Shown: positions 12,748 through 48,431 of the stretch, one piece after another | Position numbering within the stretch: position 1 is the stretch's first letter | Layout of the letters: every line of letters begins with the position of its first letter | Assembly (NCBI GenBank): GCA_051313645.2 | Contig: JBNRSN020000027.1 | Location: 42,842,001-42,906,000, forward strand | DNA: 64,000 nt | Direction: 5' to 3' | DNA from: Centroscyllium fabricii | Taxonomy: Eukaryota | Made by a program: the position numbers and the translations under genes | Notes under the pieces: model-generated | What the model was told of the DNA's origin: nothing | The model's input: only the letters and a program-made list of their open reading frames with translations | Databases searched by the model: none

Positions 12748-13597
12748 GGATAAGGGGTAAGCCATTTAGAACTGAGATGAGGAGGAATTTTGTCACCGAG
12801 AGTGGTGAACCTGTGGAATTCTCTACCACAGAAGGCAGTTGAGGCCAATACATTAAATATATTCAAGAAGGAGTTAGATATATTTCTTAAGGCTAAAGGG
12901 ATCAAGGGATATAGAAACATAGAAGATAGGAGCAGGAGTAGGCCATTCGGCCCTTCCAGCCTGCTCCGCCATTCAATGAGATCATGGCTGATCATCCAAA
13001 CCCAGCACCCTGTCCCTGCCTTGTCCCCATATCCCTCGATCCCCATCGAGCCTGCACCGACACATATCCCACCCTATCCCCGTAACCCCACATATTCAAT
13101 CCCCCTAACACTAAGGGTCAATTTATGCTGGCCAATCAACCTAACCCGCACATCTTTGGACTGTGGGAGGAAACCGGAGCACCCGGAGGAAACCCATGCA
13201 GACACGGGGAGAATGTGCAAACTCCACACAGATAGTACCCGAGGCCGGATTTGAACCCGGGTCTCTAGTGCTGTAAGGCAACAGTGCTAGCCACCGTGCC
13301 GCCCCTTTTTTTTTTCGCCCGCCGGAACCACGGACACCGAGCCCCCGGCCGAGCCCCAGCTCTGCCAACGCCCCCCCACTGGCCTATGGCCTATTCACAC
13401 ACGACACACACCGGGGCCCTCGACATCGTCAGCTGACGACTGGGGGGCTGACGCCACACCGCCAGCACCCGTGGCTGATATGGGGAGAAAGCAGGGACAG
13501 GGTACTGAGTTTGGATGATCAGCCATGATCTCATTAAATAGCAGAATAGGCTTGATGGGCCGAATGGCCTACTCCTGCTCCTATCTTCTCTGCTTCA
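12748..13597 (+). mobile_element. CR1 LINE 3' fragment split by an insertion at 12913-13476
   Basis: RVVNLWNSLPQKAVEA ORF2 end at 12790-12912 resumes at 13477 with the CR1 3' UTR; GATAT duplicated at 12908-12912 and 13477-13481. Confidence 0.8.
12913..13304 (-). mobile_element. tRNA-derived V-SINE (HE1-like) with CR1-type tail
   Basis: tRNA-like head with B box GGTTCAAATCC, V-core GGGTTTCCTCCGGGTGCTCCGGTTTCCTCCCAC; near-identical to 15527-15934 and 51100-51502. Confidence 0.9.
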
Positions 13598-14982: not shown

Positions 14983-16058
14983 AGAATTATGAATTTTTAA
15001 GTGCCATCTATGTCCAGAGGGCAGCAGGGCATGGCACCAAGCCAGGAGAGGAGCAAAGCAGCACAACGTCACTCCTTCAGACTCGAAGCTCTCTTGGAAG
15101 GGGGAGGGTGGGGGGCGCAGGACCAACGGATTCCTGTGTGTGGGTGCCACTAAGTCACCAGAATTTTTACCTCCACCACCTGGAGGGAGTGGGGGGGGGG
15201 GGGGTGCTGCAGGTACGGGGTGGGGGGGGATCGTGGCGGGGTGGGGGGTGTGCGGCATTGGATGGTGTGCGGGGGAGGGGGCGGGGAGCATGCGTTGGGG
15301 GGGCGGGGGGGTTGCGGTGCGTGGTGGGGGGGCACTGAAGGCCGGACGAACGGATTCCTGTGCGTGGGTGCCACTAAGTCACCAGAATTTTTACCTCCAC
15401 CACCTGGAGGGAGGTATCTGCTAAAATGGCAGGGAGTCTAAATTAACTGTGAGGCCAGAGGTTATTTGCTCCGCAGGCTGCAGGTCACACCTGTGGCTTT
15501 CTTCTTTCATGCCTAAGAAGATTATTAGAAACATCGAAACATGGAAGATAGGAGCAGGAGTAGGCCATTCGGCCCTTCGAGCCTGCTCTGCCATTCAATT
15601 AGATCATGGCTGATCATCCAAACCCAGCACCCCGCCCCTGCCCTCTCCCCATATCCCTCGATCCCTATCGAGCCTGCACCGACACATATCCCACCCTATC
15701 CCCGTAACCCCACATATTCAATCCCCCTAACACTAAGGGTTAATTTATCCTGGGCAATCAACCTAACCCGCACATCTTTGGACTGTGGGAGGAAACCGGA
15801 GCACCCGGAGGAAACCCACGCAGACACGGGGAGAATGTGCAAACTCCACACAGATAGTACCCGAGGCTGGATTTGAACCTGGGTCTCCAGTGCTGTGAGG
15901 CAACAGTGCTAACCACTATGCCACCATGCCGCCCTCAGGGCCTCGGGCCTCACAGTTAATTTAGACTCCCTGCCATTTTAGCAGATACCCCCCTCCAAGT
16001 GGTGGAGGTAAACATTTTGTTTGGCAAGATCACCCAGAGGTTAGAAATTCTGACTTCT
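14983..16058. repeat. Unclassified repeat with ~69-bp direct duplication, G-rich tract and ~65-bp inverted repeat, interrupted by a V-SINE
   Basis: 15121-15189 repeated at 15344-15412; ~15390-15456 inverted at ~15946-16012; outer boundaries tentative. Confidence 0.45.
15527..15934 (-). mobile_element. V-SINE (HE1-like)
   Basis: Full head, V core and CR1-type tail; same subfamily as 12913-13304. Confidence 0.9.
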
Positions 16059-16144: not shown

Positions 16145-16445
16145 TGTGGTAACCGTTATATAATGCTTATTACCACCGTAATATTGTTGCACAATATTAA
16201 CCAACATGTATAGCGGCTGGGTGCACTATACACAGCTTTGTATTGCGACACTGTCGCGGGGTCAGGTCAGCCACACCTCTAACTCCTCCCCTCAGGTGAG
16301 TGCCTTATAGGTGGGGTCTGACCTGCCCCCATTCATTCTGTACCTGATGTTCGACCGGAGCGTAGCTCCTTTGTAAAGCTAATAAAAGCCTTTAGTTAAG
16401 GTAACTACACGTCTTTAGTTTTATTAGATTATTGACGATACGTCA
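16145..16445 (+). repeat. 5' LTR (301 bp)
   Basis: Four substitutions versus 20786-21086; AATAAA at 16381-16386. Confidence 0.95.
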
Positions 16446-16446
16446 A

Positions 16447-16460
16447 TTTTATTAGCTTTA
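16447..16460 (+). other. Non-tRNA PBS-position sequence complementary to the element's own LTR
   Basis: TTTTATTAGCTTTA is the exact reverse complement of TAAAGCTAATAAAA (16374-16387); no TGG start. Confidence 0.8.
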
Positions 16461-16469
16461 AAATTTAAA

Positions 16470-18257
16470 ATGGAGAGCAGCGCTGTGAAACCCGAAAAGC
16501 TGGACATTAGTCCACAGGACCCATCCGCCGCCAATACATTTGAACACTGGTTCAGTCTCGTCGAGGCCTACATGGAGGCCGCCAAGGCGACAACCGACGG
16601 GAACAAGCTTCATGTTCTCACATCAAGGATCTCCAGCCGGGTATACTCCTTCATCCGCGACGCTAAGACGTACACAGAAGCCGTGGAAAAACTGAAGGCA
16701 TGCTACGTGCGCCCGGTCCACTCGGTCTACGCCAGATATGTGCTGGCGACCAGACCACAACTAGTTGGTGAGTCCAACGAGCAGTACCTGCTGGCGCTCC
16801 AAGCCCTTGTCCAGGCCTGTGACTGCAAGGCACGGACAGCACAAGAGGAGGCGAATCTCCTCGTCCGGGATGCCTATGTAACGGGGATCAGGTCCACAGA
16901 GGCCCGCCAGCGGCTGCTGGAGAAAGAGACACTAACGCTGGATGAGGCGATCTCCCTCTCCAACGCGGTGGATGTCGCACGCCGCAGGCTAGAGGCGTAC
17001 GGCAGCCACAGCACACCAGCCACCTTCGACCCCTGGGTGGCCACACGACGGTTCGAGACCCCCACAACGGCAGCGGCAGCTGCGAAGACGTCGGAGGAGA
17101 AGAGATGCTACTTCTGCGGCCAGGGACTACACCCGCGAGCGAAATGCCCCGCGAGGACCGCGACCTGCGAGAAGTGCAAGAAAAAGGGACACTACGCCAG
17201 GGCCTGCAAATCGGCCCCGGCGTCCAGCTCCAGACACAACAGCGCGGCCTGCGAAAGCTCCAACGCCGGCCCTTGGCCTCAGGTAAGCTGCAGTTGCAGC
17301 GCGACCCAGCGACGGTCCGGGGGTAGGGTACAAGCGCCCCCGTCTCCCACCCTGATGCGGCAGAGGCCGGCCGCACACACTGCACGCCAAACTCGGCCAC
17401 GGCCGGCCCTGTGCGACCCCCCAACGCCGGCATCTCGCCCAGCGCGGCCCGCTGCGTGCGAATCACGGGCGCCGCCAACCCAGCCACCGTGGCCCGCTGC
17501 GCGCGAACCACAGGCACCGCCACCGCGTCCAGAGCGGCCCGCCGCATGTGAATCACGGGCGCCGCCATCTTGTCCGCAGCGGCCAGCCATGTGCGACCCC
17601 CCGGCGCCACCATCTTGTCTTCAGCGGCCAGCCATGTGCGACTCCCCGGCGCCGCTATTTTGTCCACAGCAGCCGACCATGTGCGAATCACGGGCGCCGC
17701 CATCTTGTGCACGGCCCCCCTCGCCAGCGGAGGGCTGCCACAAAAGCACACACACTTCGGCCTCAGCCACGGTCGACCAGGCTAGGCCGCGCACCCTATC
17801 AAATTCCATGATGGGGATTAAAGTCAACGGCCATGCCACTAACTGCCTGTTCGACACCGGAAGCACAGAGAGCTTCATCCACCCCGACACAGTGCAGCGC
17901 TACGGACTGCAGACCCTGCCCACGCGCTACCAAGTCTCCCTTGCTTCACAGTCCCACACAGCGGACGTCACCGGCTACTGCTCCGTCACGCTCACAGTCA
18001 GGGACTGCGTGTACCGTAATTTTAAATTGTACATACTCCAGCAGTTGTGCGCCCCAGTCTTACTGGGACTGGAATTCCAGTGCTACCTTAAGAGCGTGAC
18101 AATGGAGTTCGGCGGGACCCTGGCCCCCCTCACCGTCAGTAGCCGGGACAATCCCTTCTTAAAGCGGAGCCCGACTTGCGGCCTTTCCACCCTGAAAGTC
18201 GACCCCCCCCTCACTGTTCGCCAACCTCAACCCAAACTGCAAACCTATTGTTACTAA
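16470..18257 (+). CDS. gag: Gag-protease ORF (595 aa; frameshifted into RT at C8 18203-18210)
   Basis: CYFCGQGLHPRAKC and CEKCKKKGHYARAC zinc knuckles, Pro/Cys 15-aa repeats, CLFDTGS aspartic protease motif. Confidence 0.85.
   Translation: MESSAVKPEKLDISPQDPSAANTFEHWFSLVEAYMEAAKATTDGNKLHVLTSRISSRVYSFIRDAKTYTEAVEKLKACYVRPVHSVYARYVLATRPQLVGESNEQYLLALQALVQACDCKARTAQEEANLLVRDAYVTGIRSTEARQRLLEKETLTLDEAISLSNAVDVARRRLEAYGSHSTPATFDPWVATRRFETPTTAAAAAKTSEEKRCYFCGQGLHPRAKCPARTATCEKCKKKGHYARACKSAPASSSRHNSAACESSNAGPWPQVSCSCSATQRRSGGRVQAPPSPTLMRQRPAAHTARQTRPRPALCDPPTPASRPARPAACESRAPPTQPPWPAAREPQAPPPRPERPAACESRAPPSCPQRPAMCDPPAPPSCLQRPAMCDSPAPLFCPQQPTMCESRAPPSCARPPSPAEGCHKSTHTSASATVDQARPRTLSNSMMGIKVNGHATNCLFDTGSTESFIHPDTVQRYGLQTLPTRYQVSLASQSHTADVTGYCSVTLTVRDCVYRNFKLYILQQLCAPVLLGLEFQCYLKSVTMEFGGTLAPLTVSSRDNPFLKRSPTCGLSTLKVDPPLTVRQPQPKLQTYCY
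17400..17714 (+). repeat. In-frame 45-bp tandem repeat (7 units) in the Gag-PR linker
   Basis: Units such as RPAACESRAPPSCPQ and RPAMCDPPAPPSCLQ. Confidence 0.85.
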
Positions 18258-18312
18258 GCGTCGGCGTTACAGTGCAGGGGATCGGACATTTATCAGGTCG
18301 GAGGCCGGGCGT

Positions 18313-20766
18313 ATGCTGAAGGAGGGGATAATTGAAGCCAGCACCAGCCCCTGGCGGGCCCAGGTCGTAGTGGTTAAGACTGGCGAGAAACAGCGAATGG
18401 TGATCGACTACAGACAGACCATTAACCGCTACACCGGGCTTGACGCCTACCCCCTTCCCCGCATCTCGAAAATGGTTAACCAGATCGCCCAGTACAAGGT
18501 GTTCTCCACATTCGACCTTAAGTCGGCGTATCACCAGCTCCCGATCCGGAAAGCCGATCGCCCGTACACCGCCTTCGAGGCGAACGGTCGGCTCTACCAC
18601 TTCCTCCGGGTCCCCTTCGGCGTGACCAATGGAGTGTCGGTATTCCAGAGGGAGATGGACCGCATGGTTGACCAGAACGGGTTGCAGGCCACTTTCCCCT
18701 ACCTGGACAACGTGACCATCTGCGGCCATGACCAGCAGGACCACGATGCCAACCTGGCCAAATTTCTCCACACGGCGAAACGGCTCGATCTCACGTACAA
18801 TAAAGATAAGTGCGTCTTTAGTACAGATTGGCTCGCCATCCTCGGATACGTGGTGGAAAACGGGGTCCTCGGCCCCGACCCACAGCGTATGCGTCCCTTA
18901 CAGGAACTGCCCCTTCCTCACAACCCCAAAGCCCTGAGGAGATGTCTGGGATTTTTCTCTTATTACGTGCAATGGGTTCCCCAGTTCGCGGATAAGGCCA
19001 GACCACTCCTCAAGGCTGCCGTCTTCCCCCACTCGGTAGAAGCCCACACGGCATTCGCCCGGATCAAGGAAGATATTATCAAGGCGACCATGCACGCCGT
19101 TGATGAGTCCATCCCTTTCCAGGTGGAGAGTGACGCTTCGGACTTTGCCCTTGCCGCCACCCTGAATCAGGCAGGCAGGCCCGTAGCGTTTTTCTCCCGC
19201 ACCCTACAGGCACCCGAAACTCGCCACTCTGCAGTGGAAAAGGAGGCCCAGGCCATCGTGGAGGCCGTGCGCTACTGGCGTCATTACCTGGCCGGCAAGC
19301 GTTTTACCCTGCTCACCGACCAACGGTCGGTCGCGTTTATGTTTAATAATAAACAAAAGGGTAAAATCACGAATGATAAGATCCTGCGGTGGCGGATCGA
19401 GCTCTCGACTTCCGAGTACGACATTCTTTACCGACCAGGCAAACTCAATGAACCCCCGGACGCACTGTCCAGGGGAACTTGCGCCAGTGCCTAGCTAGAC
19501 CGGCTGAAGGAACTCCACGATCGCCTCTGCCACCCGGGCACCAGACTTGCCCATTTCGTTAAATCCCGTAGCCTCACCTACTCCATCACGGAGATCAAGG
19601 CTATGACCCGAGAGTGCCCTGTTTGCGCCGAGTGCAAACCCCAATTTTACAGGCCAGACACGGCGCACCTCATTAAGGCCACCCGCCCCTTTGAATGTCT
19701 AAGCATGGACTTCAAAGGCCCCCTCCACTCCACCGACCGCAACTCGTACTTCCTCACGGTCGTAGACGAGTTCTCCCGCTTCCCCTTCGCCTTCCCCTGC
19801 CCAGATATGACGAGCGCAACGGTGATCAAACACTTCACCATGCTGTTCGCCATTTTCGGTCTCCCCAGCTACATCCATAGCGACCGGGGGTCGTCGTTCA
19901 TGAGCGACCAACTGCGTCAGTTTCTTCTTCAGAAAGGGGTTGCCTCCAGCAGAACGACCAGTTACAACCCCCGGGGGAATGGCCAGGTAGAAAGGGAGAA
20001 CGGGATCATCTGGAAGGCGGTCAGCCTGGCCCTGAAGTCCAGAGGCCTTCCAGTGTCCCGTTGGCAGGCAGTCCTCCCAGACGCGCTGCACTCGATCCGC
20101 TCTCTGCTGTGTACGGCTACCAACGCCACACGTCACGAATTGCTCTTTTCCTTCCCCAGGAAGTCGACTTCGGGGACAGCACTTCCACCATGGCTCACGA
20201 TGCCGGGGCCTGTCTTACTTAGAAAGCATGTCCGCGGCCATAAGACCGACCCCCTGGTGGAGAAGGTGCAGCTGCTGCACGCCAACCCACAGTATGCATA
20301 CGTGCAGTTCCCGGACGGGCGCGAGGACACCGTCTCCATCAGGGACCTAGCGCCCGCCAGGAGCAACACAGCAGAGCCCCTGGTCGAGCCTCAGCCCGAC
20401 CAGCCACTACCTATCGACCACTGGCCTACATACCAACTACAACCCACCGGATTTTGGCCGATGCACACACACACACCGGAGCCCCCGCCACTACCAGCTG
20501 AGGCCCAAGAACCGGACGACGCACCGCAGGCACAGCAGCAACCGGAGGGCCCGGCCCCACTGCCACTACCGGCACCAGCACCGACACTACCGGCACCAGC
20601 GCCGCCGACACTACCGGCACCAGCGCCGCCGACACTACCGACACCAGCGCCGCCGACACTGCAGGCACCAGCGCCGCTGACAGAGACCCGGCGGTCCTCA
20701 AGGCAGACGCGACCGCCGGAGAGACTCATTATGAACTGCTCTGTCCATTCACCCCGCCGGACTTAA
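18313..20766 (+). pseudogene. pol: RT-RNase H-integrase, interrupted by TAG at 19492-19494
   Basis: DLKSAYHQL, VPFG, YLDN, ESDAS, EKEA, PDALSR, DFKG/HSDRG/EREN; the stop is CAG in the paralog at ~44176. Confidence 0.9.
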
Positions 20767-20785
20767 TTTTCAAAGAAGGGGTGAA

Positions 20786-21086
20786 TGTGGTAACCGTTGT
20801 ATAATGCTTATTACCACCGTAATATTGTTGCACAATATTAACCAGCATGTATAGCGGCTGGGTGCACTATACACAGCTTTGTATTGCGACGCTGTCGCGG
20901 GGTCAGGTCAGCCACACCTCTAACTCCTCCCCTCAGGTGAGTGCCTTATAGGTGGGGTCTGACCTGCCCCCATTCATTCTGTACCTGATGTTCGACCGGA
21001 GCGTAGCTCCTTTGTAAAGCTAATAAAAGCCTTTAGTTAAGGTAACTACGCGTCTTTAGTTTTATTAGATTATTGACGATACGTCA
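20786..21086 (+). repeat. 3' LTR (301 bp)
   Basis: Direct repeat of 16145-16445 followed by TSD ACATG. Confidence 0.95.
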
Positions 21087-23600: not shown

Positions 23601-23701
23601 GTGTAAACTCCACTCCAGGTATTATCATAGAAATTTTACAGTGCGGATAAGGGCCATTCGGCCCATCCAGTCCGCACCGGCCCAGGAAACTCCTCGCTAT
23701 A

Positions 23702-26590
23702 CTAACCCCATTTGCCCGCACCTGGCCCATAACCCTGTATGTTATGGTCCTTCATGTGCTGGTCCAAATATTTTTTAAATGTTGCGATGGTTTCTGTTTC
23801 CACCACCCTTACAGGCAGGGAGTTCCAGACTTCCACCACCCTCTGGGTAAAGAAATTTCTCCTTACCTCCCCCCTAAACCTCCCTCCCCTAATCTTGAAT
23901 CTATGTCCCCTAGTACTTGACTCTCCCACCAATGGAAACAATGCCCCTTTATCTACCCTATCGTGTCCTCTCATGATCTTGTAGACCTCAATCATGTCAC
24001 CCCTCCACCTTCTCTTCTCCAGGGCAAACAACCCCAGCCTGTCCAGCCTCTCTTCGTAGCATACGTCCCCCAGACCAGGTATCATCCTGGTAAACCTTCT
24101 CTGCACCCTTTCCAGGGCAACCACGTCCTTCCTGAAGTGCGGTGACCAGAACTGCACACAGTACTCCAGCTGGGGTCTCACCAGTGTATTATACAAGTTT
24201 AACATTACCTCCCTACTTTTGTATACTATGCCCTGGTTAATAAAGGCCAGAATTCCGTATGCCTTCTTAACCACCTTGTTAACGTGTCCAGCAACCTTCA
24301 GGGAGCTGTGCACCTGTACCCCTAGGTCCCTCTGTTCCTCGGTCCTATTTAACGTTTTGTTGTTCATGGTATATTCCCTTACCCCGTTTGGTCTACCGAA
24401 TTGAATGACCTCGCATTTCTCTGGGTTGAACTCCATTTGCCATTTTTCTGCCCAATTAACCATTAGATCTATATCCTCCTGAAGCCCCTTACTATCCTCA
24501 TCATTGTTTACCACCCTTCCGATTTTCGTATCATCAGCGAATTTGCTGATCATGCCCCCTACTCCCATATCCAAATCGTTGATGTATACTAGAAACAGTA
24601 AGGGTCCCAAAACCGATCCCTGGGGGACACCACTGGTTACTGGTTTCCAGTCACAGAAGCAGCCCTCTACCATTACCCTCTGTCTCCTATCCCCTAGCCA
24701 ATTTTCGATCCACTGTGCCAAGTTGCCCTGAATCCCGTGCGCTCTAACCTTTGTTATTAGTCTCCTATGTGGGACTTTATCAAAAGCTTTGCTAAAGTCC
24801 ATATACACTACGTCCACAGTACTCCCTTCATCCACCCTCTTTGTTACCTCCTCAAAGAATTCCAACAGGTTAGTCAGGCACGACTTACCTTTGACGAAGC
24901 CATGCTGACTGTCCCTTATGAGACCTTGTTTGTCCAAATGCGAGCTGATTTTGTCCCTCAGAATTTTTTCCATCACTTTCCCTACTACAGATGTAAGACT
25001 GATTGGCCTATAGTTACCCGGTTTGTCCCTACTACCCTTTTTAAACAGGGGTACTACATTAGCCGTTCTCCAGTCCTCAGGTACATCCCCTGACGCGAGA
25101 GAGGTCCTGAAGATTTGAGACAGGGGGCCCGCAAGCTCTTCCCTGGCCTCGAACAGCAGCCTGGGGAACATTGCGTCCGGCCCTGGTGATTTGTCCACCT
25201 TTAGGCCTCCCAAGATTTCTAAAACTTCTTCCCTTGTAGTGGTAATATCCTTGATTACCCCCCCTACACTCTGTCCGATTTCGATGTCGGTATCGTCCCT
25301 CTCTTTTGTGAATACTGAAGAGAAGAATTCATTTAGTACCTCCCCCACCTCCTCAGGCTCGACGCACAGCTTTCCGCTATCGTCCTTAATGGGCCCCACT
25401 CTTTCCCTCGTGATCCTTTTGTTTTTTATATAACCATAAAAAGCCTTAGGGTTTTCCTTGATTTTACTGGCCATTGTAATCTCATGACCTCTCTTGGCTT
25501 TTCTTATCTCCTTCTTTAAATCACCCCTATATTTCTTATACTCCCCTAGTGCCTCCTCGGTTTTTAGCCGTTTATATTCATTGAAAGCCCCCCTTTTTTT
25601 CTTCATTAATTTACATATATCCCTAGACATCCAAGGTTCCCTTTGTTTGCCTCCCCCACCCTTAATTTTTGCAGGAACATGTTCCTCCTGTATCTTCCCG
25701 ACTTCCCTTCTGAAGGCCTCCCACTGCTCTGATGCAGATCTTCCTCTGAGAAGATGGCCCCAGTCTACTGCGGCTAAATCGTTCCTAATTTTATTGAAAT
25801 CCGCCTTCCCCCAGTTTAGTACTTTTACCCCTGGTCCATTTTTATCTTTCTCCATTACAATTTTGAAACTAACTGAATTGTGGTCGCTATCCCCGAAGTG
25901 CTCCCCCACTGTTACCTCCTCAATCTGACCGTCCTCGTTCCCAAGTATTAGGTCTAGTACCGCCCCCCCCCTTGTAGGTGACCCAACATATTGTTTCAAA
26001 AAATTTTCTTGGCTGCATTGTAGAAATGCTGAACCTTCCGTGCCCCTCACACTTTGATTTTCCCAGTTGATATTGGGGAAATTGAAGTCCCCTAATATTG
26101 TTACTTTATTATTTTCACTTATCTTCGTGATTTGTTCACATATCTTATCCTCTACCTCCCCTTTACTGTTTGGTGGTCTATAATAAACTCCCAGTAAGGT
26201 GCCCCCCCCCTTTTTATTTTTTACCTCCACCCATAGTGCCTCGTTTGAGGATTCGTCCATTAGGTCGACCCGCCTAATGGCTGTGATTGAATCCTTAATC
26301 AGTATCGCTACCCCCCCTCCCCTTTTTCCCTCGTCTCTGTCCCGCCTGAAAATTCTATACCCCGGAATGTTTAGCTGCCATTCTTGCCCCTCTTTCAGCC
26401 ACGTCTCCGTGATAGCTACTATATCATATTCCCATGAGTCAACCAATACCTTTAATTCATCCACTTTGTTAGTCAGACTCCTTGCGTTAAAGTATATGCC
26501 TTTCATTCTCTGTCCTAACACTACCTTGTTTTGCTGTCTAGTCTGCTTTCCTTTATTAGGTTGTGTTCCCCTATCCATTATACCTTCCAT
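23702..26590 (-). CDS. CR1 ORF2: APE endonuclease plus reverse transcriptase (962 aa)
   Basis: NARSL, ITETW, GDFN, SDHN endonuclease motifs; DFSKAFDKV, GVPQGSVLGP, FADD RT motifs. Confidence 0.95.
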   Translation of the reverse strand: MEGIMDRGTQPNKGKQTRQQNKVVLGQRMKGIYFNARSLTNKVDELKVLVDSWEYDIVAITETWLKEGQEWQLNIPGYRIFRRDRDEGKRGGGVAILIKDSITAIRRVDLMDESSNEALWVEVKNKKGGGTLLGVYYRPPNSKGEVEDKICEQITKISENNKVTILGDFNFPNINWENQSVRGTEGSAFLQCSQENFLKQYVGSPTRGGAVLDLILGNEDGQIEEVTVGEHFGDSDHNSVSFKIVMEKDKNGPGVKVLNWGKADFNKIRNDLAAVDWGHLLRGRSASEQWEAFRREVGKIQEEHVPAKIKGGGGKQREPWMSRDICKLMKKKRGAFNEYKRLKTEEALGEYKKYRGDLKKEIRKAKRGHEITMASKIKENPKAFYGYIKNKRITRERVGPIKDDSGKLCVEPEEVGEVLNEFFSSVFTKERDDTDIEIGQSVGGVIKDITTTREEVLEILGGLKVDKSPGPDAMFPRLLFEAREELAGPLSQIFRTSLASGDVPEDWRTANVVPLFKKGSRDKPGNYRPISLTSVVGKVMEKILRDKISSHLDKQGLIRDSQHGFVKGKSCLTNLLEFFEEVTKRVDEGSTVDVVYMDFSKAFDKVPHRRLITKVRAHGIQGNLAQWIENWLGDRRQRVMVEGCFCDWKPVTSGVPQGSVLGPLLFLVYINDLDMGVGGMISKFADDTKIGRVVNNDEDSKGLQEDIDLMVNWAEKWQMEFNPEKCEVIQFGRPNGVREYTMNNKTLNRTEEQRDLGVQVHSSLKVAGHVNKVVKKAYGILAFINQGIVYKSREVMLNLYNTLVRPQLEYCVQFWSPHFRKDVVALERVQRRFTRMIPGLGDVCYEERLDRLGLFALEKRRWRGDMIEVYKIMRGHDRVDKGALFPLVGESSTRGHRFKIRGGRFRGEVRRNFFTQRVVEVWNSLPVRVVETETIATFKKYLDQHMKDHNIQGYGPGAGKWG

Positions 26591-29000: not shown

Positions 29001-29454
29001 TACCCTGCAAGTTACACCCTCAAAAAACTCTAACAGATTTGTTAAACACGATTTCCCTTTTGTGAAACCTATTTTCTAGATTCTAGCATTTTCCCTACTA
29101 CTGATGTCAGGCTAACTGGCCTATAGTTCCTAGTTTTCTCTCTTCATCCCTGAACACCGATATGATTGTCTGCTGTCAAATATCTGCTTCAGGACATGTT
29201 CACAATTAGCCATCTGGGATTGGTTAGCTATTTATACAAACCATGCCGAAGACATGGGTAAGAGATCCAGTGATTACTTACTTCATTGAAGACTGGAGAG
29301 GGATTTGGCCAGCTGTCCATTCGGTTTCTATTTGTAACATGGAAAGGGAGTTCCAATCAGAGTTTTTCCACAAAGACAGCTATACCCCATATAAATTGAA
29401 TTAAATAGGTGTGGTTAGATCCTTTACCTGTTGGTGATATTCTAGATCAAAAAC

Positions 29455-32343
29455 AAGAAGTCTGACTAACAAGGTGGATGAGTTAAAGGTATTGGTTGAC
29501 TCATGGGAATATGATATAGTAGCTATCACGGAGACGTGGCTGAAGGAGGGGCAGGAATGGCAGCTAAATATTCCGGGGTATAGAAGTTTCAGGCGGGACA
29601 GAGACGAGGGAAAAAGGGGAGGGGGGGTAGCGATACTGATTAAGGATTCAATCACAGCCATCAGGCGGGTCGACCTAATGGATGATTCCTCAAACGAGGC
29701 ACTATGGGTGGAGGTAAAAAATAAAAAGGGGGGGGCACCTTACTGGGAGTATACTATAGACCACCAAACAGTAAAGGGGAGATGGAGGATAAGATATGTG
29801 AGCAAATCACGAAGATAAGCGAAAAAAACAAAGTAATAATATTAGGGGACTTTAATTTCCCCAACATCAACTGGGATTGTCAGAGTGTGAGGGGCACGGA
29901 AGGTTCAGCATTCTTAAAATGCAGCCAAGAGAGTTTTTTGAAGCAATATGTAGGGTCACCTACAAGGGGGGGGGGGCGGTACTAGACCTAATACTTGGGA
30001 ACGAAGACGGGCAGATAGAGGAGGTAACAGTGGGGGAGCACTTCGGGGATAGCGACCACAATTCAGTTAGTTTCAAGATTGTAATGGAGAAGGATAAAAA
30101 TGGACCAGGGGTAAAAGTACTAAACTGGGGGAAGGCGGATTTCAATAAAATTAGGCGCGATGTAGCCGCAGTGGATTGGGGCCATCTTCTCAGAGGAAGA
30201 TCTGCATCAGAGCAGTGGGAGGCCTTCAGAGGGAAGGTCGGGAAGATACAGGAGGAACATGTTCCTGCAAAAATTAAGGGCGGGGGAGGTAAACAAAGGG
30301 AACCTTGGATGTCTAGAGATATATGTAAATTAATGAAGAAAAAAAGGGGGGCTTTCAATGAATATAAACGGCTAAAAACTGAGGAGGCACTAGGGGAGTA
30401 TAAGAAGTATAGGGGGGAATTAAAGAAGGAGATAAGAAAAGCCAGGAGGGGTCATGAGATTGCAATGGCCGGCAAAATCAAGGATAACCCTAAGGCATTT
30501 TACAGTTATATAAAAAACAAAAGGATCACGAGGGAAAGGGTGGGGCCCATTAAGGACGATAGCGGAAAGTTGTGCGTCGAGCCCGAGGCGGTGGGGGAGG
30601 TACTAAACGAATTTTTCTCTTCAGTATTCACAAGAGAGAGTGACGTAACCGACATCGTAATCGGACAGAGTGCAGGGGGGGGTAATTGAGGATATTACCA
30701 TTACAGGGGAAGAAGTACTAGAAATCTTGGGAAGCTTAAAGGTAGACAAATCACCAGGGCCGGACGCGATGCTCCCCAGGCTGCTGTTCGAGGCCAGGGA
30801 AGAGCTTGCGGGCCCCCTGTCTCAAATTTTCAGGTCCTCTCTCGCGTCAGGGGATGTACCTGAGGACTGGAGAACGGCTAATGTAGTACCCCTGTTTAAA
30901 AAGGGTAGTAGGGACAAACCGGGTAACTACAGGCCAATCAGTCTTACATCTGTAGTGGGGAAAGTAATGGAAAAAATTCTGAGGGACAAAATCAGTTTGC
31001 ATTTGGAAAAGCAGGGTTTGATAAGGGATAGTCAGCATGGCTTCGTCAAAGGTAAGTCGTGCCTAACTAATCTGTTGGAATTCTTTGAAGAGGTAACAAA
31101 GAGGGTGGATGAAGGGAGTACTGTTGACGTGGTGTATATGGACTTTAGCAAGGCTTTTGATAAAGTCCCACATAGGAGACTAATAACAAAGGTTAAAGCA
31201 CATGGGATACAGGGCAACTTGGCACAGTGGATTCAAAATTGGCTGGGGGATAGGAGACAAAGGGTAATGGTAGAGGGCTGCTTCTGTGACTGGAAACCAG
31301 TAACCAGTGGTGTCCCCCAAGGATCGGTTTTGGGACCCTTACTGTTTCTAGTATACATCAATGATTTGGACATGGGAGTAGGGGGTACGATCAGCAAATT
31401 TGCTGATGATACGAAAATTGGAAGGGTGGTAAATAACGATGAAGATAGTAAAAGGCTTCAGGAAGATATAAATGTAATGGTTAGTTGGGCAGAAAAATGG
31501 CAAATGGAGTTCAACCCAGAGAAATGCGAGGTCATACAATTCGGCAGACCAAATGGGGTAAGGGAATATACCATGAACAAAAAAACGTTAGGTAGGACCG
31601 AGGAACAGAGGGACCTTGGGGTACAGGTGCACAGCTCCCTGAAGGTTGCTGGACACGTAAACAAGGTGGTTAAGAAGGCATACGGAATTCTGGCCTTTAT
31701 TAACCAGGGCATAGTATACAAAAGTAGGGAGGTAATGTTAAACTTGTATAACACGCTGGTGAGACCTCAGCTAGAGTACTGTGTGCAATTCTGGTCACCG
31801 CACTTCAGGAAGGATGTGGGTGCCCTGGAGAGGGTGCAGAGAAGGTTTACCAGGATGATACCTGGTCTGGGGGACTTATGCTACGAGGAAAGGCTGGACA
31901 GGCTGGGGTTGTTTGCCTTGGAGAAGAGAAGATTGAGGGGTGACATGATTGAGGTGTACAGGATCATGAGAGGACACGATAGGGTGGATAAAGGGGCATT
32001 GTTTCCCTTGGTGGGAGAGTCAAATACTAGGGGACATAGATTCAAGATTAGGGGGGGGAGGTTTAGGGGGGAGGTAAGGAAAAATGTCTTTACTCAGAGG
32101 GTGGTGGAAGTGTGGAACTCCCTGCCTGTAAGGGTGGTGGAGGCAGAAACCATCGCAACATTTAAAAAATATTTGGACCAGCACATGAAGGACCGTAACA
32201 TACAGGGTTATGGGCCAGGTGCGGGCAAATGGGGTTAGTATAGTGAGGAGTTTCCTGGGCCGGTGCGGACTGGATGGGCCGAATGGCCTTTATCCGCACT
32301 GTAAAGTTTCTATGATTCTTCTATGATTCTATGATTCTATGAT
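29455..32343 (+). mobile_element. 5'-truncated CR1, same subfamily as 23624-27678, inverted relative to it
   Basis: ORF2 in pieces 29474-32238 with three G-run frameshifts; (ATTCTATG)n tail at ~32310-32343. Confidence 0.93.
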
Positions 32344-33897: not shown

Positions 33898-35197
33898 CTA
33901 CAGTGGGATGTGGACCCGCCACACTGTAACTATATCCTATTGTGGTCTTGTCCAACATAATAACATATTATAAAGCCCTTTAATGCGAATACCGTTTGAT
34001 CAGGCAGCTGAATAAGTCAAATTCCACTTTTATTACATACAATTCTGTGATTTCTACCAGTGGTTTGGGAAATGTATTCCGCAATTCCACTCACTTGCAA
34101 TTAAGGCCATTCCTTTAAGGTGACTGAATAGATCGACTTCTGCTTCTGTTGCCTGGGATTACGGTATTTTTAACCAGGGTTTTAGGGACTTTTCTAAAGA
34201 CTGCAAATTAGTGAGTGAATTTGCATGTGTTGAAATGTATAATTACATCCTTGCCTATGTGTCTTAATGTTACAAGCCAAATGTAACCAGGTTCTTTCAA
34301 TGAAGGCGTACCGAATGTACAAAACAGACCCTGTTCCTTTTATGAAAGAAAATTAATTTGCTTCATTTTTGAAACGGGCCTCGATCTGATAAATCCCAGC
34401 AGCTACAGCTGCACTTTCTTCTGACTGGGATAATCTTGAAATCATTTAATCATCATCAAGTTTTATTATTTATTTTTTCCTTTCAGTCCTCGGTCTTTAT
34501 TGGCTGCAGCCATTAGGACAGGAAGTCAAACCGCTTCCAGATCTCCACAAATGCTGCTTGGAGCCATCTACACAAAGCTGTATAAAAAAACAGCTCCGGC
34601 CTTCCTCTCTTTCCAGGTGTTCCCATGCTCTGCCGTGGTGAAATACCTGGTTTCGGATCGGCCCCTCCCCAAAGCAGCACAGCCGAGATCAGGAAATCTG
34701 GTGCCGAGACTTCAGTCTGTGTTCTCCCACTGTCCTCTGTTAATGGAGTTATGCTTCCTTTTAAACCAGACAGGCAATGATCATTCACCATAAACATTGA
34801 CCACCGTAGCTTTAAAACAATTCAGTTCAGAGTTACTAATTATTCACTGCAATAATGTTGCTTCCATTCCAACTCCACTACAGTCCAATGAAAATTCCAG
34901 CCACTTTTTATTTAACAAATTTAAATTATTCACTTCGTAGCTACTAAATTTTATTTGCAACTTCCTAGCAACAACATTTCCAAGTCAGCTGTGTTTGGCC
35001 AATGTCCCAAATGGATCCTAGTAGCAGGGCTATTTTACTGTGATTGCAATCACACGGCAAGTGTTAGAATTTGACACAAATATCAAACAGTAGAAACATA
35101 ATCTTGCCATTTAAGATGGTTGCTTTTGATAATGATTTTTTTCATGGATATTTGGCCTGCTTAATTTAGTGAACATTTATTAATTTCATTGCTGCAA

Positions 35198-36190
35198 TAC
35201 TGTTTCTAGTATACATCAATGATTTGGACATGGGAGTAGGGGGTACGATCAGCAAATTTGCTGATGATATGAAAATTGGAAGGGTGGTAAATAACAATGA
35301 AGATAGTAAAAGGCTTCAGGAAGATATAAATGTAATGGTTAGTTGGGCAGAAAAATGGCAAATGGAGTTCAACCCAGAGAAATGCGAGGTCATACAATTC
35401 GGCAGACCAAATGGGGTAAGGGAATATACCATGAACAAAAAAACGTTAGGTAGGACCGAGGAACAGAGGGACCTTGGGGTACAGGTGCACAGCTCCCTGA
35501 AGGTTGCTGGACACGTAAACAAGGTGGTTAAGAAGGCATACGGAATTCTGGCCTTTATTAACCAGGGCATAGTATACAAAAGTAGGGAGGTAATGTTAAA
35601 CTTGTATAACACGCTGGTGAGACCTCAGCTAGAGTACTGTGTGCAATTCTGGTCACCGCACTTCAGAAAGGATGTGGTTGCCCTGGAGAGGGTGCAGAGA
35701 AGGTTTACCAGGATGATACCTGGTCTGGGGGACTTATGCTACGAGGAAAGGCTGGACAGGCTGGGGTTGTTTGCCTTGGAGAAGAGAAGATTGAGGGGTG
35801 ACATGATTGAGGTGTACAGGATCATGAGAGGACACGATAGGGTGGATAAAGGGGCATTGTTTCCCTTGGTGGGAGAGTCAAATACTAGGGGACATAGATT
35901 CAAGATTAGTGGGGGGGAGGTTTAGGGGGGAGGTAAGGAAAAATTTCTTTACTCAGAGGGTGGTGGAAGTGTGGAACTCCCTGCCTGTAAGGGTGGTGGA
36001 GGCAGAAACCATCGCAACATTTAAAAAATATTTGGACCAGCACATGAAGGACCGTAACATACAGGGTTATGGGCCAGGTGTGGGCAAATGGGGTTAGTAT
36101 AGTGAGGAGTTTCCTGGGCCGGTGCGGACTGGATGGGCCGAATGGCCTTTATCCGCACTGTAAAGTTTCTATGATTCTATGATTCTATGA
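35198..36190 (+). mobile_element. 5'-truncated CR1, near-identical to 31340-32343
   Basis: ORF 35224-35925 with FADD; (ATTCTATG)n tail. Confidence 0.92.
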
Positions 36191-36193
36191 ATA

Positions 36194-36580
36194 CAGGTTG
36201 AGCACCGTTAATCCGGACACCGTTAATCTGGCGACTTCAGTCGTCCGTAATGAATCCGGCCGACTGATCTGCGCATGCGCAGAATGACCACCCCGCTTGG
36301 CTGCGCATGCTCGGGCCTTCCCGAATGATGAGCGCATGCGCAGACCATTCAAAATGGCCGCCAGCTTTTCGCAGTGGCCATTTTGAATGGTCCTGAATGA
36401 TCCCCGGGCCTCCCCGAACGATGAGCGCATGCGCAGACCATTCAAAGTGGCCGCCGGCCTTTCGCGGCGGCCATTTTGAATGGTCTGTGCGTGCACTCGC
36501 GAAGCTTCAATCATTCGGAGTTTTCAAAAATTCGGCACGGTCCTGATCCCGACTGTGCCGGATTAACGGTGCTCAACCTG
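36194..36580. mobile_element. Tc1/mariner-superfamily (Tigger/pogo-like) MITE
   Basis: TIR CAGGTTGAGCACCGTTAATCCGG, TA TSD; internal GCGCATGCGC and CAAAATGGC repeats. Confidence 0.88.
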
Positions 36581-39020: not shown

Positions 39021-40075
39021 ATGATGCATTTTGGGAGGACTAACAAGGCCAGGGAATACACAATGAATGGTAAGACCCTAGGAAAGACAGAGGATCAGAG
39101 GGACCTTGGTGTGCATGTACATAGATCCCTGAAGGCAGCAGGACAGGTGGATAAGGTGGTTAAAAAGGCATATGGGATACTTGCCTTCATTAGCCGAGGC
39201 ATCGAATATAAGAGCAGGGAGGTTATGATGGAGCTGTACAAAATGCTGATAAGGCCACAGCTGGAGTACTGTGCGCCAGGGGTCCCCAACCTTTTTCGGA
39301 CCGCGGCCCATTTTCGGCTTGTCATTTTTTTCACGGACCGGGATGGGGGGGGGTGCTGGCGGAGTTTTTTTGACTGACCAGTGGGGGGGGGGGGGGTGGC
39401 GGAGTTTTTTTTGACTGACCGGGAGGGTCTGTGAATCGGCGAATGATCTGCGCATGCGCCGATTCACAGACCCTGCCGCGGCCCGACGGCAATTGATCTG
39501 CGCTTGCGCCGATTCACAGACCCTGCTGCGGACCGGTAAAACTGTCCCGCGGACCGGTGGTTGCGGACCACTGCTGTGCGCAGTTCTGGTCGCCACACTA
39601 TAGGAAGGATGTGATTGTTTTGGAGAGGGTGCAGAGGAGATTCACTAGGATGTTACCTGGGCTGGAGCGCTTCAGCTATGGAGAAAGACTGGACAGGCTA
39701 GGGTTGTTTTCCTTAGAGCAGAGAAGGCTGAGGGGGGACCTGATTGAGGTGTACACAATTATGAGGGGCATAGATAGGGTAGATAGAAAGGAACTTTTTC
39801 CCTTAGTAGAGGGGTCAATAACCAGGGGGCATAGTTTCAAGGTGAGGGGATTTGAGGAAGAACCTTTTCACCCAGACGGTGGTTGGAATCTGGAACTCAC
39901 TGCCTGAAAGGGTGGTAGAGGCAGGAACCCTCACAACATTCAAGAAGCATTTAGATGAGCACTTGAAATGCCATAGCATGCAAGCCTATGGACCAAATGC
40001 AGGAAAATGGGATTAGAATAGACGGCTTGATGGCCGGCGCGGATACGATGGGCCGAAGAGCCTCTTTCTGTGCTG
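39021..40075 (+). mobile_element. 5'-truncated CR1 (another subfamily) interrupted by a hAT MITE
   Basis: MHFGRTNKAREY...RPQLEYC/AQFWSPHY joins across the insertion; 3' UTR at 40010-40075. Confidence 0.88.
39277..39573. mobile_element. hAT (Charlie-like) MITE
   Basis: TIRs CAGGGGTCCCCAAC / GTTGCGGACCACTG; perfect 8-bp TSD CTGTGCGC at 39269-39276 and 39574-39581. Confidence 0.92.
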
Positions 40076-41030
40076 GTCGAAGGTTGTTTTTGCGACTGGA
40101 AGCCTGTGTCCAGCGGGGTACCGCAGGGATCGGTGCTGGGTCCCTTGCTTTTTGTAGTCTATATTAATGATTTGGATATGAATGTAAAGGGTATGATTAG
40201 TAAGTTCGCTGATGACACGAAAATTGGTGGGGTGGTGGATAGCGAGGAGGGAAGCTTCAGTCTGCAGGACAATATAAATGGGTTGGTCAGATGGGCGGAA
40301 CAGTGGCAAATGGAATTTAACCCTGAAAAGTGTGAGGTGATGCATTTTGGAAGGACAAACAAGGCAAGGGAATACACAATGAATGGTAAGACCCTGGGAA
40401 AGACAAAGGATCAGAGGGACCTTGGTGTGCATGTACATAGATCCCTGAAGGCAGCAGGACAGGTAGATAAGGTGGTTAAAAAGGCATATGGGATACTTAT
40501 ATTCTATGCCTCGGCTAATAACGGTAAGAGCAGGGAGGTTATGATGGAGCTGTACAAAACGCTGGTAAGGCCACAGCTAGAGTACTGTGTGCAGTTCTGG
40601 TCGCCACACTTTTGGAAGGATGTCATTGCTCTGGAGAGGGTGCAGAGGAGATTCACCAAGATGTTACCTGGGCTGGAGCGCTTCAGCTATGAAGAGAGAC
40701 TGGACAGGCTGGGGTTGTTTTCCTTAGAGCAGAGAAGGCTAAGGGGGTCCTGATTGAGGTGTACAAAATTATGAGGGGCATAGATAGGGTAAATAAAAAG
40801 GAACTTTTTCCCTTGGTAGAGGGGTCAATAACAAGGGGACATAGTTACAAGATAAGGGGAAGAAGGTTTAGAGGGGATTTGAGGAAGAACTTTTTCACCC
40901 AGAGGGTGGTTGGAATCTGGAACTCACTGCCTGAAAGGGTGGTGGAGGCAGGAACCCTCACAACATTCAAGAAGCATTTGGATGAGCACTTGAAGTGCCA
41001 TAGCATACAAGGCTACAGACCAAATGCAGG

Positions 41031-41341
41031 TGTGGTAAACCATTATCACTAATACTATACCACTGTTGTACTACCGTACTATCACCTGTAAATACCTTAC
41101 TGCTGCCTATGTAAATACTGTACTATGATCTGTAAGTACCTGTATACCAATACATGTAGGAGCTTGCCCCGGCTGACCCCGTCTTGGACTCCACCTCCGG
41201 ACTCAGGTACTTAGGTGCTTGCTCACTCACCTCTGGTCAGTACACTCCTGAGCTCAGCCGAGACACACTCCATTCTTTAGTGAATAAAAGCCGTATAGTT
41301 AAGGTTAATTCTTCGTCTTTGGCCTTATTGATGGTACATCA
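41031..41341 (+). repeat. 5' LTR (311 bp)
   Basis: TG...CA; the 3' copy lacks 7-bp and 23-bp segments and has several substitutions. Confidence 0.92.
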
Positions 41342-41342
41342 A

Positions 41343-41356
41343 TTTTATTCACTAAA
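41343..41356 (+). other. Non-tRNA PBS-position sequence complementary to the element's own LTR
   Basis: TTTTATTCACTAAA is the exact reverse complement of TTTAGTGAATAAAA (41276-41289). Confidence 0.8.
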
Positions 41357-41365
41357 TTTTCGACA

Positions 41366-44300
41366 ATGGAGAACGCATTGAAACCGGACCGCCTAGATTT
41401 CGATCCCCAGGCACCGAGTGCAGCAAACGACTGAGCACTGATTCAACTGTTTTGAAGCCTACCTGAGAGCTATGAAAGCCGGTGACGATGACAAACTCCA
41501 GTTACTGGTCTCCAGGGTCAGCAGCCGGGTGTACTCCCTCATCAGGGACACCAAAACGTACAAGGACACCGTCGGCAAGCTGAAGGGCCATTACTTACGC
41601 CCGGTCAACTCTGTGTACGCCAGGCACCTACTGGCTGCCAGAAGACAACAGCCGGGTGAGTTCAATGCTGAATTCCTCCGGGCGCTCCAGACCCTTGTAC
41701 GGGCAATGCTGAATTCCTCCGGGCGCTCCAGACCCTTGTATGGGCCTGTGACTGCGAGGCAGTAACTGCAGCTGAGCACACCGAATACCTGGTCCGCGAT
41801 GCATACGTGGCGGGGCTCAAGTCCAGCCAGGCCCGCCAGCGGCTGCTGGAGCAGGACAAACTCTCCCTCGACTCCGCCGTCTCGCTGTCCAATGCGGTCG
41901 ACGGGGCCCTCCGGAGCATGGACTCCTACACGGCGGGTAACCCCCACGCGGGTCCATCTAATTCCTGGGCGCCGCAAACGCTGCTCCCAGTGCAGGCCCC
42001 AACGACAGCAGCGGCGGCTGCGACCCTGGTGAAGACTCCAGCAGGCCCCAGATGCTACTTCTGCGGCCAGGTGAAACACCAGCGGCAGCTGTGCCCAGCA
42101 AGGAGCGCACCCTGCGTGAAATGCGGGAAGAAGGGCCACTTCGCAAAAGTTTGTAAATCGGGCCCGGCCTCCAGACCCAACAGCGCAGCCTGCGAATCGA
42201 GCGAAGCCACTCCATGGCCACAGATATGGTGCTGCAGCGCGACCCGGCAGCGGCCGGCCACGTGCGAACCACGGGCGCCGCCATCTTAGATAGTCGCGGC
42301 CAGCCGCATGCGAACCACGGGCGCCTCCATCTTTGATACATTCGCGGCCAGCCGCATGCGAACCACGGGCGCCGCCATCTTCGCGGTGGCCATCTTGCCA
42401 CTCTCCCCGGAGACGGCCCCAGCCGTCGGAGGGCCCCAGCACACCCACAACACTGGCCTCAGCCACTATCGACCAGTCCAGGCCACACCCCTTGACTAAC
42501 TCCATGATGGCAATCACGGTTGAGGGGCACGCCACGAACTGCCTGTTTGATACCGGGAGTACGGGGAGTTTCATACACCCCAACACGGTGCGGTGCTACG
42601 CACTGCCGAACCGACCGACGCGCTACCAAATCTCCCTGGCCTCCAAGTCCCACACTGCGGACATCACCGGCTACTGCACGGTCACGCTCACGGTCAAGGG
42701 GTCCACGTACCACAATTTTAAATTGTACGTCCTCCCGCACCTCTGCGCACCAGTGTTACTGGGACTGGATTTCCAGTGCAACCTGCAGAGTGTGACGATG
42801 GCGTACGGCGGGTCCCTGTACCCCCTCACGGTCAGTAGCCGTGACGACCACAACCTACCACAGCACTCGACCTGCGGCCTGTCCACACTCCAAAGTTGAC
42901 CCACCCTCACTGTTCGCCAACCTCGACCCCAACCAAAAACCCGTTGCAACCAAGAGTCGGCAATACAGTGCAGCAGACCGGGCCTTTATCAGGACGGAGG
43001 TCGAGCGACTGCTATGGGAGGGGATCATTGAGGCCAGTACCAGCCCTTGGAGGGCCCAAGTCGTAGTGGTTAAGACCGGTGAAAAACTGCACATGGTCAT
43101 AGACTACAGCCAGACCATTAAACGATACACTGGGCTCGACGCATACCCCCTTCCCCGCATCACGGACATTGTCAACCAGATCGCCCAGTACAAGGTTTTT
43201 TTCCACCATCGCCCTTAAGTCGGCGTACCATCAGCTCCCCATTTAGGCTGCGGACCGCCAGTACACCGTCTTCGAGGTGAACGGGCGACTCTACCACTTT
43301 CTCCGGGTCCCCTTTGGTGTTACCAACGGAGTGTCGGTCTTCCAGCAGGAGATGGACCGAATGGTTGACCAGAACCTGTTGCAGGCCACCTTCCCCTACT
43401 TAGATAACGTCACCATCTGCGGCCATGATCAGCAGGACCATGACGCCAATCTCGACAAATTTCTCCGTACGGCCCGGTGTACAACGAGGACAAATATACC
43501 TTTAGTACCACCCACCTCGCTATCCTCGGCTACGTGGTGGAGAACGGGGTCCTCGGCCCCGATCCCGAGTGTATGCGCCCCCTGCAGGAGCTGCCCCTAA
43601 CCCACAATCCCAAAGCTTTGAAGAGATGTCTGGGTTTTTTCTCCTATTACGCTCAATGGGTGCCCCAATACGCAGATAAGGCCCGGCCTCTCCTCAAAGC
43701 TGCCGGTTTCCCACTTCCAGTAGAAGCCCAGGCGGCCTTCACCGGGATTAAGGAAGATATCATCAAGGTTACCATGCACGCCACTGATGAGTCCATTTCC
43801 TTCCAGGTCGAGAGCGACGCATCGGACTTTGCCCTGGCCGCCACCCTCAACCAGGCGGGCAGACCCGTCGCTTTCTTTTCCCGAACCCTACAGGGGCCCA
43901 AAATTCGCCACTCCTCGGTGGAGAAGGAGGCCCAAGCTATCGTGGAGGCAGTGCGCTACTGGCGCCACTACCTGTCCGGCAAGAAATTTACCCTGCTCAC
44001 GGAACAACGGTCAGTGGCGTTCATGTTCAACAACAAACAACGGGGTAAAATCAAGAATGACAAGATCCTGAGGTGGCGGATCGAACTCTTGACCTATGAG
44101 TATGACATTCTTTACCGGCCCGGTAAGCTCAACGAGCCCCCGGACGCCCTGTCCAGGGGAACGTGCGCCAGTGCCCAGCTCAACAGACTGCAGGCCCTCC
44201 ACGACAACCTCTGCCACCCAGGGGTCACCAGGCTCGCCCACTTTGTCAAGTCCCGCAACCTCCCCTACTCCATTACGGAGATCAAGGCCATGACCAAAGA

Positions 44301-45300
44301 GTGCCCTGTCTGTGCTGAGTGCAAACCCCAATTCTACAGGCCAGACAGGGTGCACCTCATCAAGGCCACCCGCCCCTTCGAGCGCCTGAGTGTGGACTTC
44401 AAAGGTTCCCTCCCCTCCACCGACCACAACTCGTATTTCCTCACGGTCATTGACGAGTTCTCCCGCTTCTCCTTTGCCTTCCCCTGCACAGACATGACGA
44501 GCGCGACGGTGATCAAACACTTAACCGCGATCTTCGGTCTCCTCAGCTACATCCACAGCGACCGGGGGTCGTTGTTCATGAGCGACGAACTGCGTCAGTT
44601 TCTGCTCCAGCAGGGGATTGCCTCGAGCAGAACGACCAGTTACAACCCCTGGGGGAACGGCCAGGTAGAGAGAGAGAACGGGCCAATCTGGAAGGCTGTC
44701 ACCTTGGCCCTCAAATCCAGAGGCCTTCCAGTCTCCCGTTGGCAAGAAGTCCTCCCCGACGCGCTACATTCCATTAATTCCCTTTTGTGTACCACTACTA
44801 ATGCCACGCCTCACGAGAAACTGTTTTCATTCCCCAGGAGATCGACTGCGGGGACAGCGCTACCGCCGTGGCTGACCACCCCGGGGCCCATTTTGCTTAG
44901 GAGACATGTCCGCGGCCACAAGACGGACCCCCTGGTGGAACGGGTGCACCTGCTCCACGCCAACCCGCAGTATGCGTACGTGGCATACCTGGATGGGCGC
45001 GAGGACACGGTCTCGATAAGGGACCTGGCGCCCGCCGGCGTCACGGACACCGAACCCCCGGCCGAGCTCCGGCTCTGCCAGCCGCCACCCACCGGCCACG
45101 AGACGCCCTGGCCAATACACACACGCAACACACTGGGGCCCTCGTCACCGCCAGCCGACAGCTGGGGGAATGACACCACGCCGCCAGCACCCATGGCTGA
45201 CAACACGCCCCGGGCCCCTCTGCCTCAACCACCGCAACCGGCACCCCGTCGGTCCCTCCGACAGGCAAAACCACCGGAGAGACTGATTACCCAATGCTGA
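41366..45300 (+). pseudogene. pol: Gag-Pol, multiply disrupted
   Basis: ATG at 41366, early TGA, 41-bp duplication at 41663-41744, CCHC knuckles, CLFDTGS, YLDN, and a 607-aa RT-end/RH/IN ORF at 43477-45300. Confidence 0.9.
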
Positions 45301-45380
45301 CGGCGAATGTAGACAAGCATTCACCTCGCCGGACTCAGACAAGCATTCACCCGCCGGACTCATTCTACAGAAGGGGTGAA

Positions 45381-45661
45381 TGTGGTAAACCATTATCACT
45401 AATACTATACCACTGTTGTACTACCGTCCTATCACCTGTAAATACCTTACTGCTGCCTATGTAAATACTGTACTGTGATCTGTAAATACCTGTATACTGA
45501 TGCATGTAGGAGCTTGCCCCGGCTGACCCCGCCCCTGACTCCACCTCCGGAACTTAGGTGCTTGCTCACTCACCTCTGGTCAGTACACTCCTGAGCTCAG
45601 TGAATAAAAGCTGTACAGTTAAGGTTAACTCTTCGTCTTTGGCCTTATTGACGGTCCATCA
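45381..45661 (+). repeat. 3' LTR (281 bp)
   Basis: Preceded by PPT AGAAGGGGTGAA, followed by TSD GCAGG. Confidence 0.92.
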
Positions 45662-47936: not shown

Positions 47937-48082
47937 GTCCTTAACTCAAGTACAGTTCTCTACATATTTAGTGTTATCGCAGAGTAGATTTTATTCCTTA
48001 CAATAATATCGAGCCTCTTTTCTACTTCCAGGTTTGCACTGCAGAGATCGTGAACTGTTGAGATATTTTGGTCAAGTTACTA

Positions 48083-48377: not shown

Positions 48378-48431
48378 TATTTGTGCTTGAGCTTTATAAT
48401 AGCAGGTATCTGGTATAGCCCAATGGGAATA

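Follow-up and report, generated by a model that had tools for sequence, protein, structure and literature searches.

Two Ty3/Gypsy elements from Centroscyllium fabricii, lying in a 64,000-nucleotide stretch of DNA that was analysed as a whole (the window), carry a reverse transcriptase (RT) in which the second aspartate of the YxDD motif is replaced by asparagine, and we consider it likely (a probability of about 85%) that such elements copy themselves through this RT, with the catalytic metals held by the two remaining aspartates. The YxDN enzyme is most likely, to judge from comparative sequence evidence, a naturally active and autonomous two-aspartate RT operating in a permissive background. 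The YxDD motif has been treated as invariant and used for calling RTs intact or dead, and in yeast models the D-to-N change blocks transposition; a clade that switches naturally between the two residues would show that this rule depends on background, and, if the reading is true, a lineage completing whole cycles on two aspartates would be the new finding. Such a clade would also supply naturally matched D and N enzymes with which to ask what role the third carboxylate plays, and annotation filters that demand YxDD would be discarding active families.

The first of these elements (element 1) spans 16145–21086 of the window, and the features of both elements lie on the + strand. Its 5′ LTR (16145–16445), of the TG...CA type, and its 3′ LTR (20786–21086), followed by the ACATG sequence of a 5-bp target duplication, enclose a gag region with two CCHC knuckles, a linker of 45-bp repeats and an aspartyl protease (16470–18257, with DTGS at 17853), an RT–RNase H frame (18196–19494), an integrase frame 3′ of the RNase H (19495–20766) and a polypurine tract (20774–20785). 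By this order of domains, gag-protease-RT-RNase H-integrase, the window element is a Ty3/Gypsy LTR retrotransposon, and the structural hallmarks of the group (TG...CA LTRs, 5-bp target duplications and a polypurine tract) are present. Pfam searches of the window recovered protease, RT, RNase H and integrase in Ty3/Gypsy order, with no match to a chromodomain or env in the element. This copy is broken, its frame changing from protease to RT and a stop standing ahead of the integrase. The two LTRs differ at 4 of 301 sites, and the recent transposition that the original prediction read from this figure is borne out, with LTR pairs of N-type elements from several subfamilies being 90–100% identical. 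All four differences between the LTRs of element 1 have A in the 5′ LTR and G in the 3′ LTR, and two of them stand in a CpG context. The 45-bp tandem repeats of the gag-protease linker occur in both elements (17397–17715 and 42248–42381) and are in frame in element 1.

The YLDN motif, encoded by TACCTGGACAAC at 18700–18711 in element 1 (Asp codon 18706–18708, Asn codon 18709–18711) and by TACTTAGATAAC at 43397–43408 in element 2, was verified in both copies, where it stands within the context FPYLDNVTICG. The best match by sequence among solved structures is the Ty3 RT (4OL8, E 5e-47), on whose YLDD the YLDN is aligned; the AlphaFold model of the element 1 RT (pLDDT 86) has a retroelement RT fold, and a fold search with this model ranked the CaMV, MLV and Ty3 RTs at the top. 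In the canonical three-aspartate set, formed by the motif A Asp and YxDD, the first two positions are intact (motif A codon at 18514–18516) and the third is occupied by Asn, and the RNase H D-E-D-D codons of element 1 are found at 19132, 19243, 19318 and 19459. As had been pointed out for the same window, a further Gypsy RT reads YLDD; it lies near 5484, in an element presumably of the CsRn1 type, a label given in the original prediction from its motifs. Four LINE RTs in the window read FADD. Element 2 (41031–45661) is an older, broken copy from a sister subfamily, with 78% nucleotide identity to element 1 over RT–RNase H, LTRs at 41031–41341 and 45381–45661 that are identical at 266 of 281 positions plus 30 gap columns, a GCAGG duplication, and an RT carrying indels and stops. 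A CR1-type LINE harbours it in its 3′ end.

The claim that the asparagine is a family trait and not a product of decay is upheld by genome-wide counts. In the 7.2-Gb genome, exact matches to the degenerate pattern YLDN[VI]T[IV]CG number 222,611, against none for the reversed-pattern control, with such patterns detecting only copies intact across 26 bases. At 4.4–4.9 kb each, the N-type copies would amount, if full length, to an estimated ~1 Gb, which would place the N form among the largest repeat sets in the C. fabricii genome. In a protein search with the window RT, all of the 150 matches listed are 95–100% identical, five of them in open frames of at least 1300 aa, and all 30 of the top genomic matches examined read YLDN. 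Chance, decay and copy-specific mutation are ruled out as explanations of the motif by these 30 matches, by the copy number and by selection on the RT.

For the estimates of selection, 62 N copies were grouped into ten subfamilies and dN/dS was calculated between one copy of each, giving a median of 0.10 for the RT (range 0.04–0.46; 33 of 45 pairs unsaturated, median dS 1.4) and of 0.11 for the RNase H (27 of 45 pairs unsaturated). Within the largest subfamily (42 copies), variants found in at least three copies have a dN/dS of 0.05, with 60 synonymous to 9 replacement changes, and singleton variants one of 0.31, a value that is biased down, most of these copies being top protein matches. Across the N-type rows of the alignment (143), the motif A Asp is kept in 141 of 143, R51 in 137 of 139 and Y96 in 141 of 143, all four RNase H acidic residues are kept in 140–142 rows, and the motif A Asp, R51, Y96, Q135 and the RNase H acids are conserved as they are in D-type rows (54). 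As a neutral-site control, none of 32 A-containing two-fold sites stays A across the ten subfamilies, in a comparison that is biased by the choice of the subfamilies through the N pattern and that we weigh below the genome-wide counts. Judged by these substitution patterns, the N-type RT evolves like a working polymerase and not like a passenger. A genome in which most relatives read YLDD, with YLDN copies evolving neutrally, is the opposite of what the counts and the purifying selection reveal.

The same evidence bears on the proposal that a YxDD RT performs synthesis in trans for YxDN elements that are non-autonomous, or that contribute no more than scaffold and RNase H. Candidate helpers exist, in the form of a related YLDD family with LTR pairs 90–99% identical and of the other Gypsy and LINE RTs of the window, and the Ty3 RT has been described, in the available text of PMC5371799, as an asymmetric dimer in which a single polymerase site works and subunit B acts as scaffold and RNase H. 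A search for D-type helpers with one motif pattern, built like that for the N form, returned 445 YLDD-type matches genome-wide, 131 of which carry the codon signature of the separate family, itself 52–56% identical to element 1. A helper family of 131 matches and ~55% identity would nevertheless have to serve the full complement of N matches, the polymerase-site and dNTP-binding residues are equally conserved in N and D rows, the RT has a dN/dS as low as that of the RNase H, and N lineages persist across corals, molluscs and cartilaginous fishes. We regard synthesis in trans as very unlikely.

A different alternative would restore the aspartate in the protein, through A-to-I editing of an mRNA in which the Asn codon is recoded to Asp, yielding an ordinary YxDD enzyme. 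AAY and GAY are separated by a single A-to-G step and D and N are nearly the sole states of the site, as editing would have it, but packaged edited RNA would leave D copies behind, and YLDD in the N background accounts for 314 matches, fewer than the 489 of the YLDS control (the neighbouring A-to-G change), with the D copies unclustered. This deficit bears on packaged RNA, and editing limited to translated, unpackaged RNA could still occur; we lend the editing explanation as a whole very little credence. On trees, D copies in the N background appear as scattered tips among N copies. That D copies replicate as a sub-lineage of their own within the N family was considered and rejected: 22 of the 30 loci nearest to one D copy were readable, comprising 16 N and six D including the query, which itself favours D matches, and the D copies did not group. 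Four older D copies have no N neighbour above 79% in the sample, and small old D lineages may therefore exist in the genome. A more specific version of the two-aspartate reading, which we put forward tentatively and which the odds do not favour, is that the cartilaginous-fish branch possesses a true two-aspartate RT in which Asn is favoured over Asp, none of the Asp variants that a single transition creates among more than 220,000 copies having given rise to a subfamily, and that this hairpin-primed lineage wrote about one-tenth of the 7.2-Gb genome.

The asparagine is also widespread outside this genome. The 120 top homologues divide into 90 YxDN, 29 YxDD and one YLNK. Over all the protein sets surveyed, the hosts named for the N form are sharks, rays, corals, a sea anemone and a mussel, and those named for the D form are Ciona, a sea cucumber, a nematode and two insects. 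Metagenome loci (80) comprise 51 DN, 23 DD and six other forms, and 91 further proteins near the Ciona element comprise 52 DN and 39 DD. In a tree set of 150 representatives at 50% identity, 148 of which cover the motif, the YxDN-bearing clade is separated from 41 outgroup rows with an SH-aLRT of 100; its 108 representatives include 57 DN, 48 DD and three others, all 40 representatives outside it are DD, and its early branches are nearly all D. The D/N site requires at least 21 changes over 127 rows (mean of 42 and minimum of 34 in shuffles) and 16 changes in a second set of 197 rows, and in 40 rows picked after seeing the tree the starred branches force eight changes, with rejection of a tree that unites all N rows in one clade (p-AU 3e-7). 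Some lone D rows in the trees may be private mutations; the diverged D pairs and a 205-member D cluster, which reads YLDD in 7 of 7 readable members, are true families. A coral cluster with a single-ORF Gag-Pol of ~1180 aa reads YIDN in 11 of 11 readable members. On these trees, YxDN marks one well-supported animal Gypsy clade, within which the residue toggles between D and N from a D ancestor. In the same clade, the P0113 cluster (P0400–P0409; 20 members) reads YLNK in four and YLDK in two of the six readable members listed, and is a lineage that departed from both D and N, which could be either non-autonomous or domesticated.

The equivalent Asp-to-Asn change cripples retroviral RT, and a natural Asn at the third carboxylate position occurs in mononegavirus L polymerases, whose motif C reads GDN. 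The latter are RNA-dependent RNA polymerases with a fixed GDN, whereas the clade described here comprises RTs that toggle between D and N. The available part of PMC4207942 was found to contain no mention of GDN. In agreement with the background quoted in the original prediction, the Ty1 D211N RT retains polymerase activity, with a 223-fold lower kpol and a preference for Mn, and loses transposition, of which RNase H suppressors give back 5–10% (available text of PMC2148107). The Ty3 D214N RT is active in vitro with reduced processivity, its transposition is abolished, and the role of metal ligand is assigned to the two remaining aspartates (available text of PMC5371799). Because these two mutants, which share with the window RT both the substitution and its position, still polymerise, two-aspartate chemistry is established. 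They fail to transpose, whereas the N state of the window RT is natural, fixed, accompanied by all four RNase H acids and massively amplified; the RNase H of N elements displays no catalytic crippling by sequence.

In a working two-aspartate RT, the two catalytic metals would be bound through the remaining aspartates and the third carboxylate would be accessory only, affecting features such as the rate, processivity and pyrophosphate handling seen in Ty1 and Ty3. The crown of the clade would have acquired a background in which an amide replaces the third carboxylate well enough. The site takes D or N and almost nothing else, so that the shape of the side chain and its hydrogen bonds are likely still required there and charge is not. 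Two candidate permissive residues, a motif B Gly and the Thr at position +2 after the Asn (18715–18717 in element 1), which shares its strand face, would have spread before or with the Asn. Among N rows 87% have the Thr, as do 97% of crown D and 26% of basal D rows, and outside the clade neither of the two most frequent residues is Thr; the corresponding figures for the Gly are 88, 94 and 22%. Both residues mark the crown in which N arises, as permissive changes would. Neither of them tracks D/N in eight independent pairs (median p not below 0.05), and no D/N co-variation was found among the columns listed of the 25 strongest (median p not below 0.05, 9–10 independent pairs). A single compensating residue was consequently discarded, the raw associations disappearing in independent pairs.

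The original prediction further linked the asparagine to an unusual mode of priming. In both elements, a 14-nt stretch after the 5′ LTR is complementary to an LTR segment bearing an AATAAA signal: in element 1 the primer-site position (16447–16460), which is not TGG-initiated, is the complement of 16374–16387, and in element 2 the stem is formed by 41276–41289 and 41343–41356. No tRNA gene was found in the window. The primer-site hairpin has a folding z of −3.8 (0 of 200 shuffles). In element 2, the complete 14-nt stem partner occurs only in the 5′ LTR (41276–41289, vs 45599–45609 in the 3′ LTR). Among 20 elements preselected for a primer-site match (15 YxDN, one YLHN and four YxDD), the primer site matches its own LTR at 11–13 of 13 nt and co-varies base for base with its LTR partner; of the 380 cross pairs, seven reach 10 nt and none 13. 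Not all copies pass a strict test for a perfect match: in the D family of the genome three of the six copies with LTRs fail it, as does roughly every second N copy.

Adaptation of the Asn to this tRNA-less, self-complementary primer would agree with the occurrence of N only inside the clade with the hairpin primer site and with the co-variation of that site and its LTR partner. However, the same hairpin is carried by four D-type elements on separate branches (L083, L141, L152 and L161), D families such as the 205-member YLDD cluster thrive in the clade, and the repeated toggling of the residue is likewise at odds with co-adaptation, which did not hold up and which we consider improbable. Its distribution makes the self-complementary tRNA-less primer site a trait of the whole clade that does not depend on the D/N residue, and that therefore provides no explanation for the Asn; hairpin priming could at most be a permissive precondition for it. 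Tf1/sushi chromoviruses self-prime from their own RNA, and in them, as in this clade, base-pairing at the primer-site position is with LTR RNA of the element itself and not with a tRNA 3′ end. Unlike Tf1/sushi, the elements described here belong to a different clade and lack a chromodomain, and the poly(A) signal is contained in their partner segment. A TATA-like box stands, in this genome's subfamilies, ~65 nt upstream of the LTR partner segment, which probably lies away from the first base of the transcript, and with such spacing an internal cut would be required for self-priming. A primer with its 3′ end abutting the LTR edge would suit the geometry, and masking of the 5′ poly(A) signal may be an additional or alternative role of the hairpin.

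The YxDN clade is probably the Cigr-1 clade of Ty3/Gypsy. To call the two elements Mag-like, as was done earlier, is imprecise: those outgroup rows that we take, by their motifs, to be Mag-type stand apart from the clade, in a tree with weakly fixed deep branches and no named Mag reference, and Cigr-1 markers fit better, though Cigr-1 is placed under Mag in one published table. Inside the clade sits an element of Ciona intestinalis (P0157/P0411, YLDD), and Cigr-1, with a founder from C. intestinalis and the library label 'LTR/Gypsy-Cigr', was compared solely by its tabulated markers. Like the window element, Cigr-1 has two CCHC arrays, an ILG-type protease end and the integrase after the RNase H, without GPY/F, chromodomain or env (available part of PMC2774666 supplement 3). 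This marker set is also found in Osvaldo, and hence is not diagnostic, and the Cigr-1 protease flap TANG (GANG in the consensus) is not recognisable in the window element or in P0411. The Cigr clade has been reported in molluscs and annelids (available text of PMC6238403 and PMC8556966), and a search of the PMC2577118 supplement for a Cigr-1 lead gave no match. Neither YxDN nor the hairpin was found mentioned for the Cigr-1 clade in papers on it, and the literature searched, which did not cover the original Cigr-1 paper or Repbase, yielded no description of YxDN in Gypsy RTs, a prior mention being possible.

Several other repeats occupy the window. Two direct repeats of ~300 bp (12911–13210 and 15533–15832), 95% identical and 2.6 kb apart, have an inverted copy at 51099–51489 on the − strand; these may represent a short LTR element of non-autonomous type plus a solo LTR. 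The LINE copies with an FADD RT at 23624–26484 and 29454–32316 are ~94% alike and form a large facing inverted pair, with further copies at 35173–36178 and 39024–41030. A 32-bp tandem array of ~15 units extends over 46707–47203, and short repeats with internal inverted arms form tandem and inverted clusters at 36318–36507, 48081–49444 and 60229–60779.
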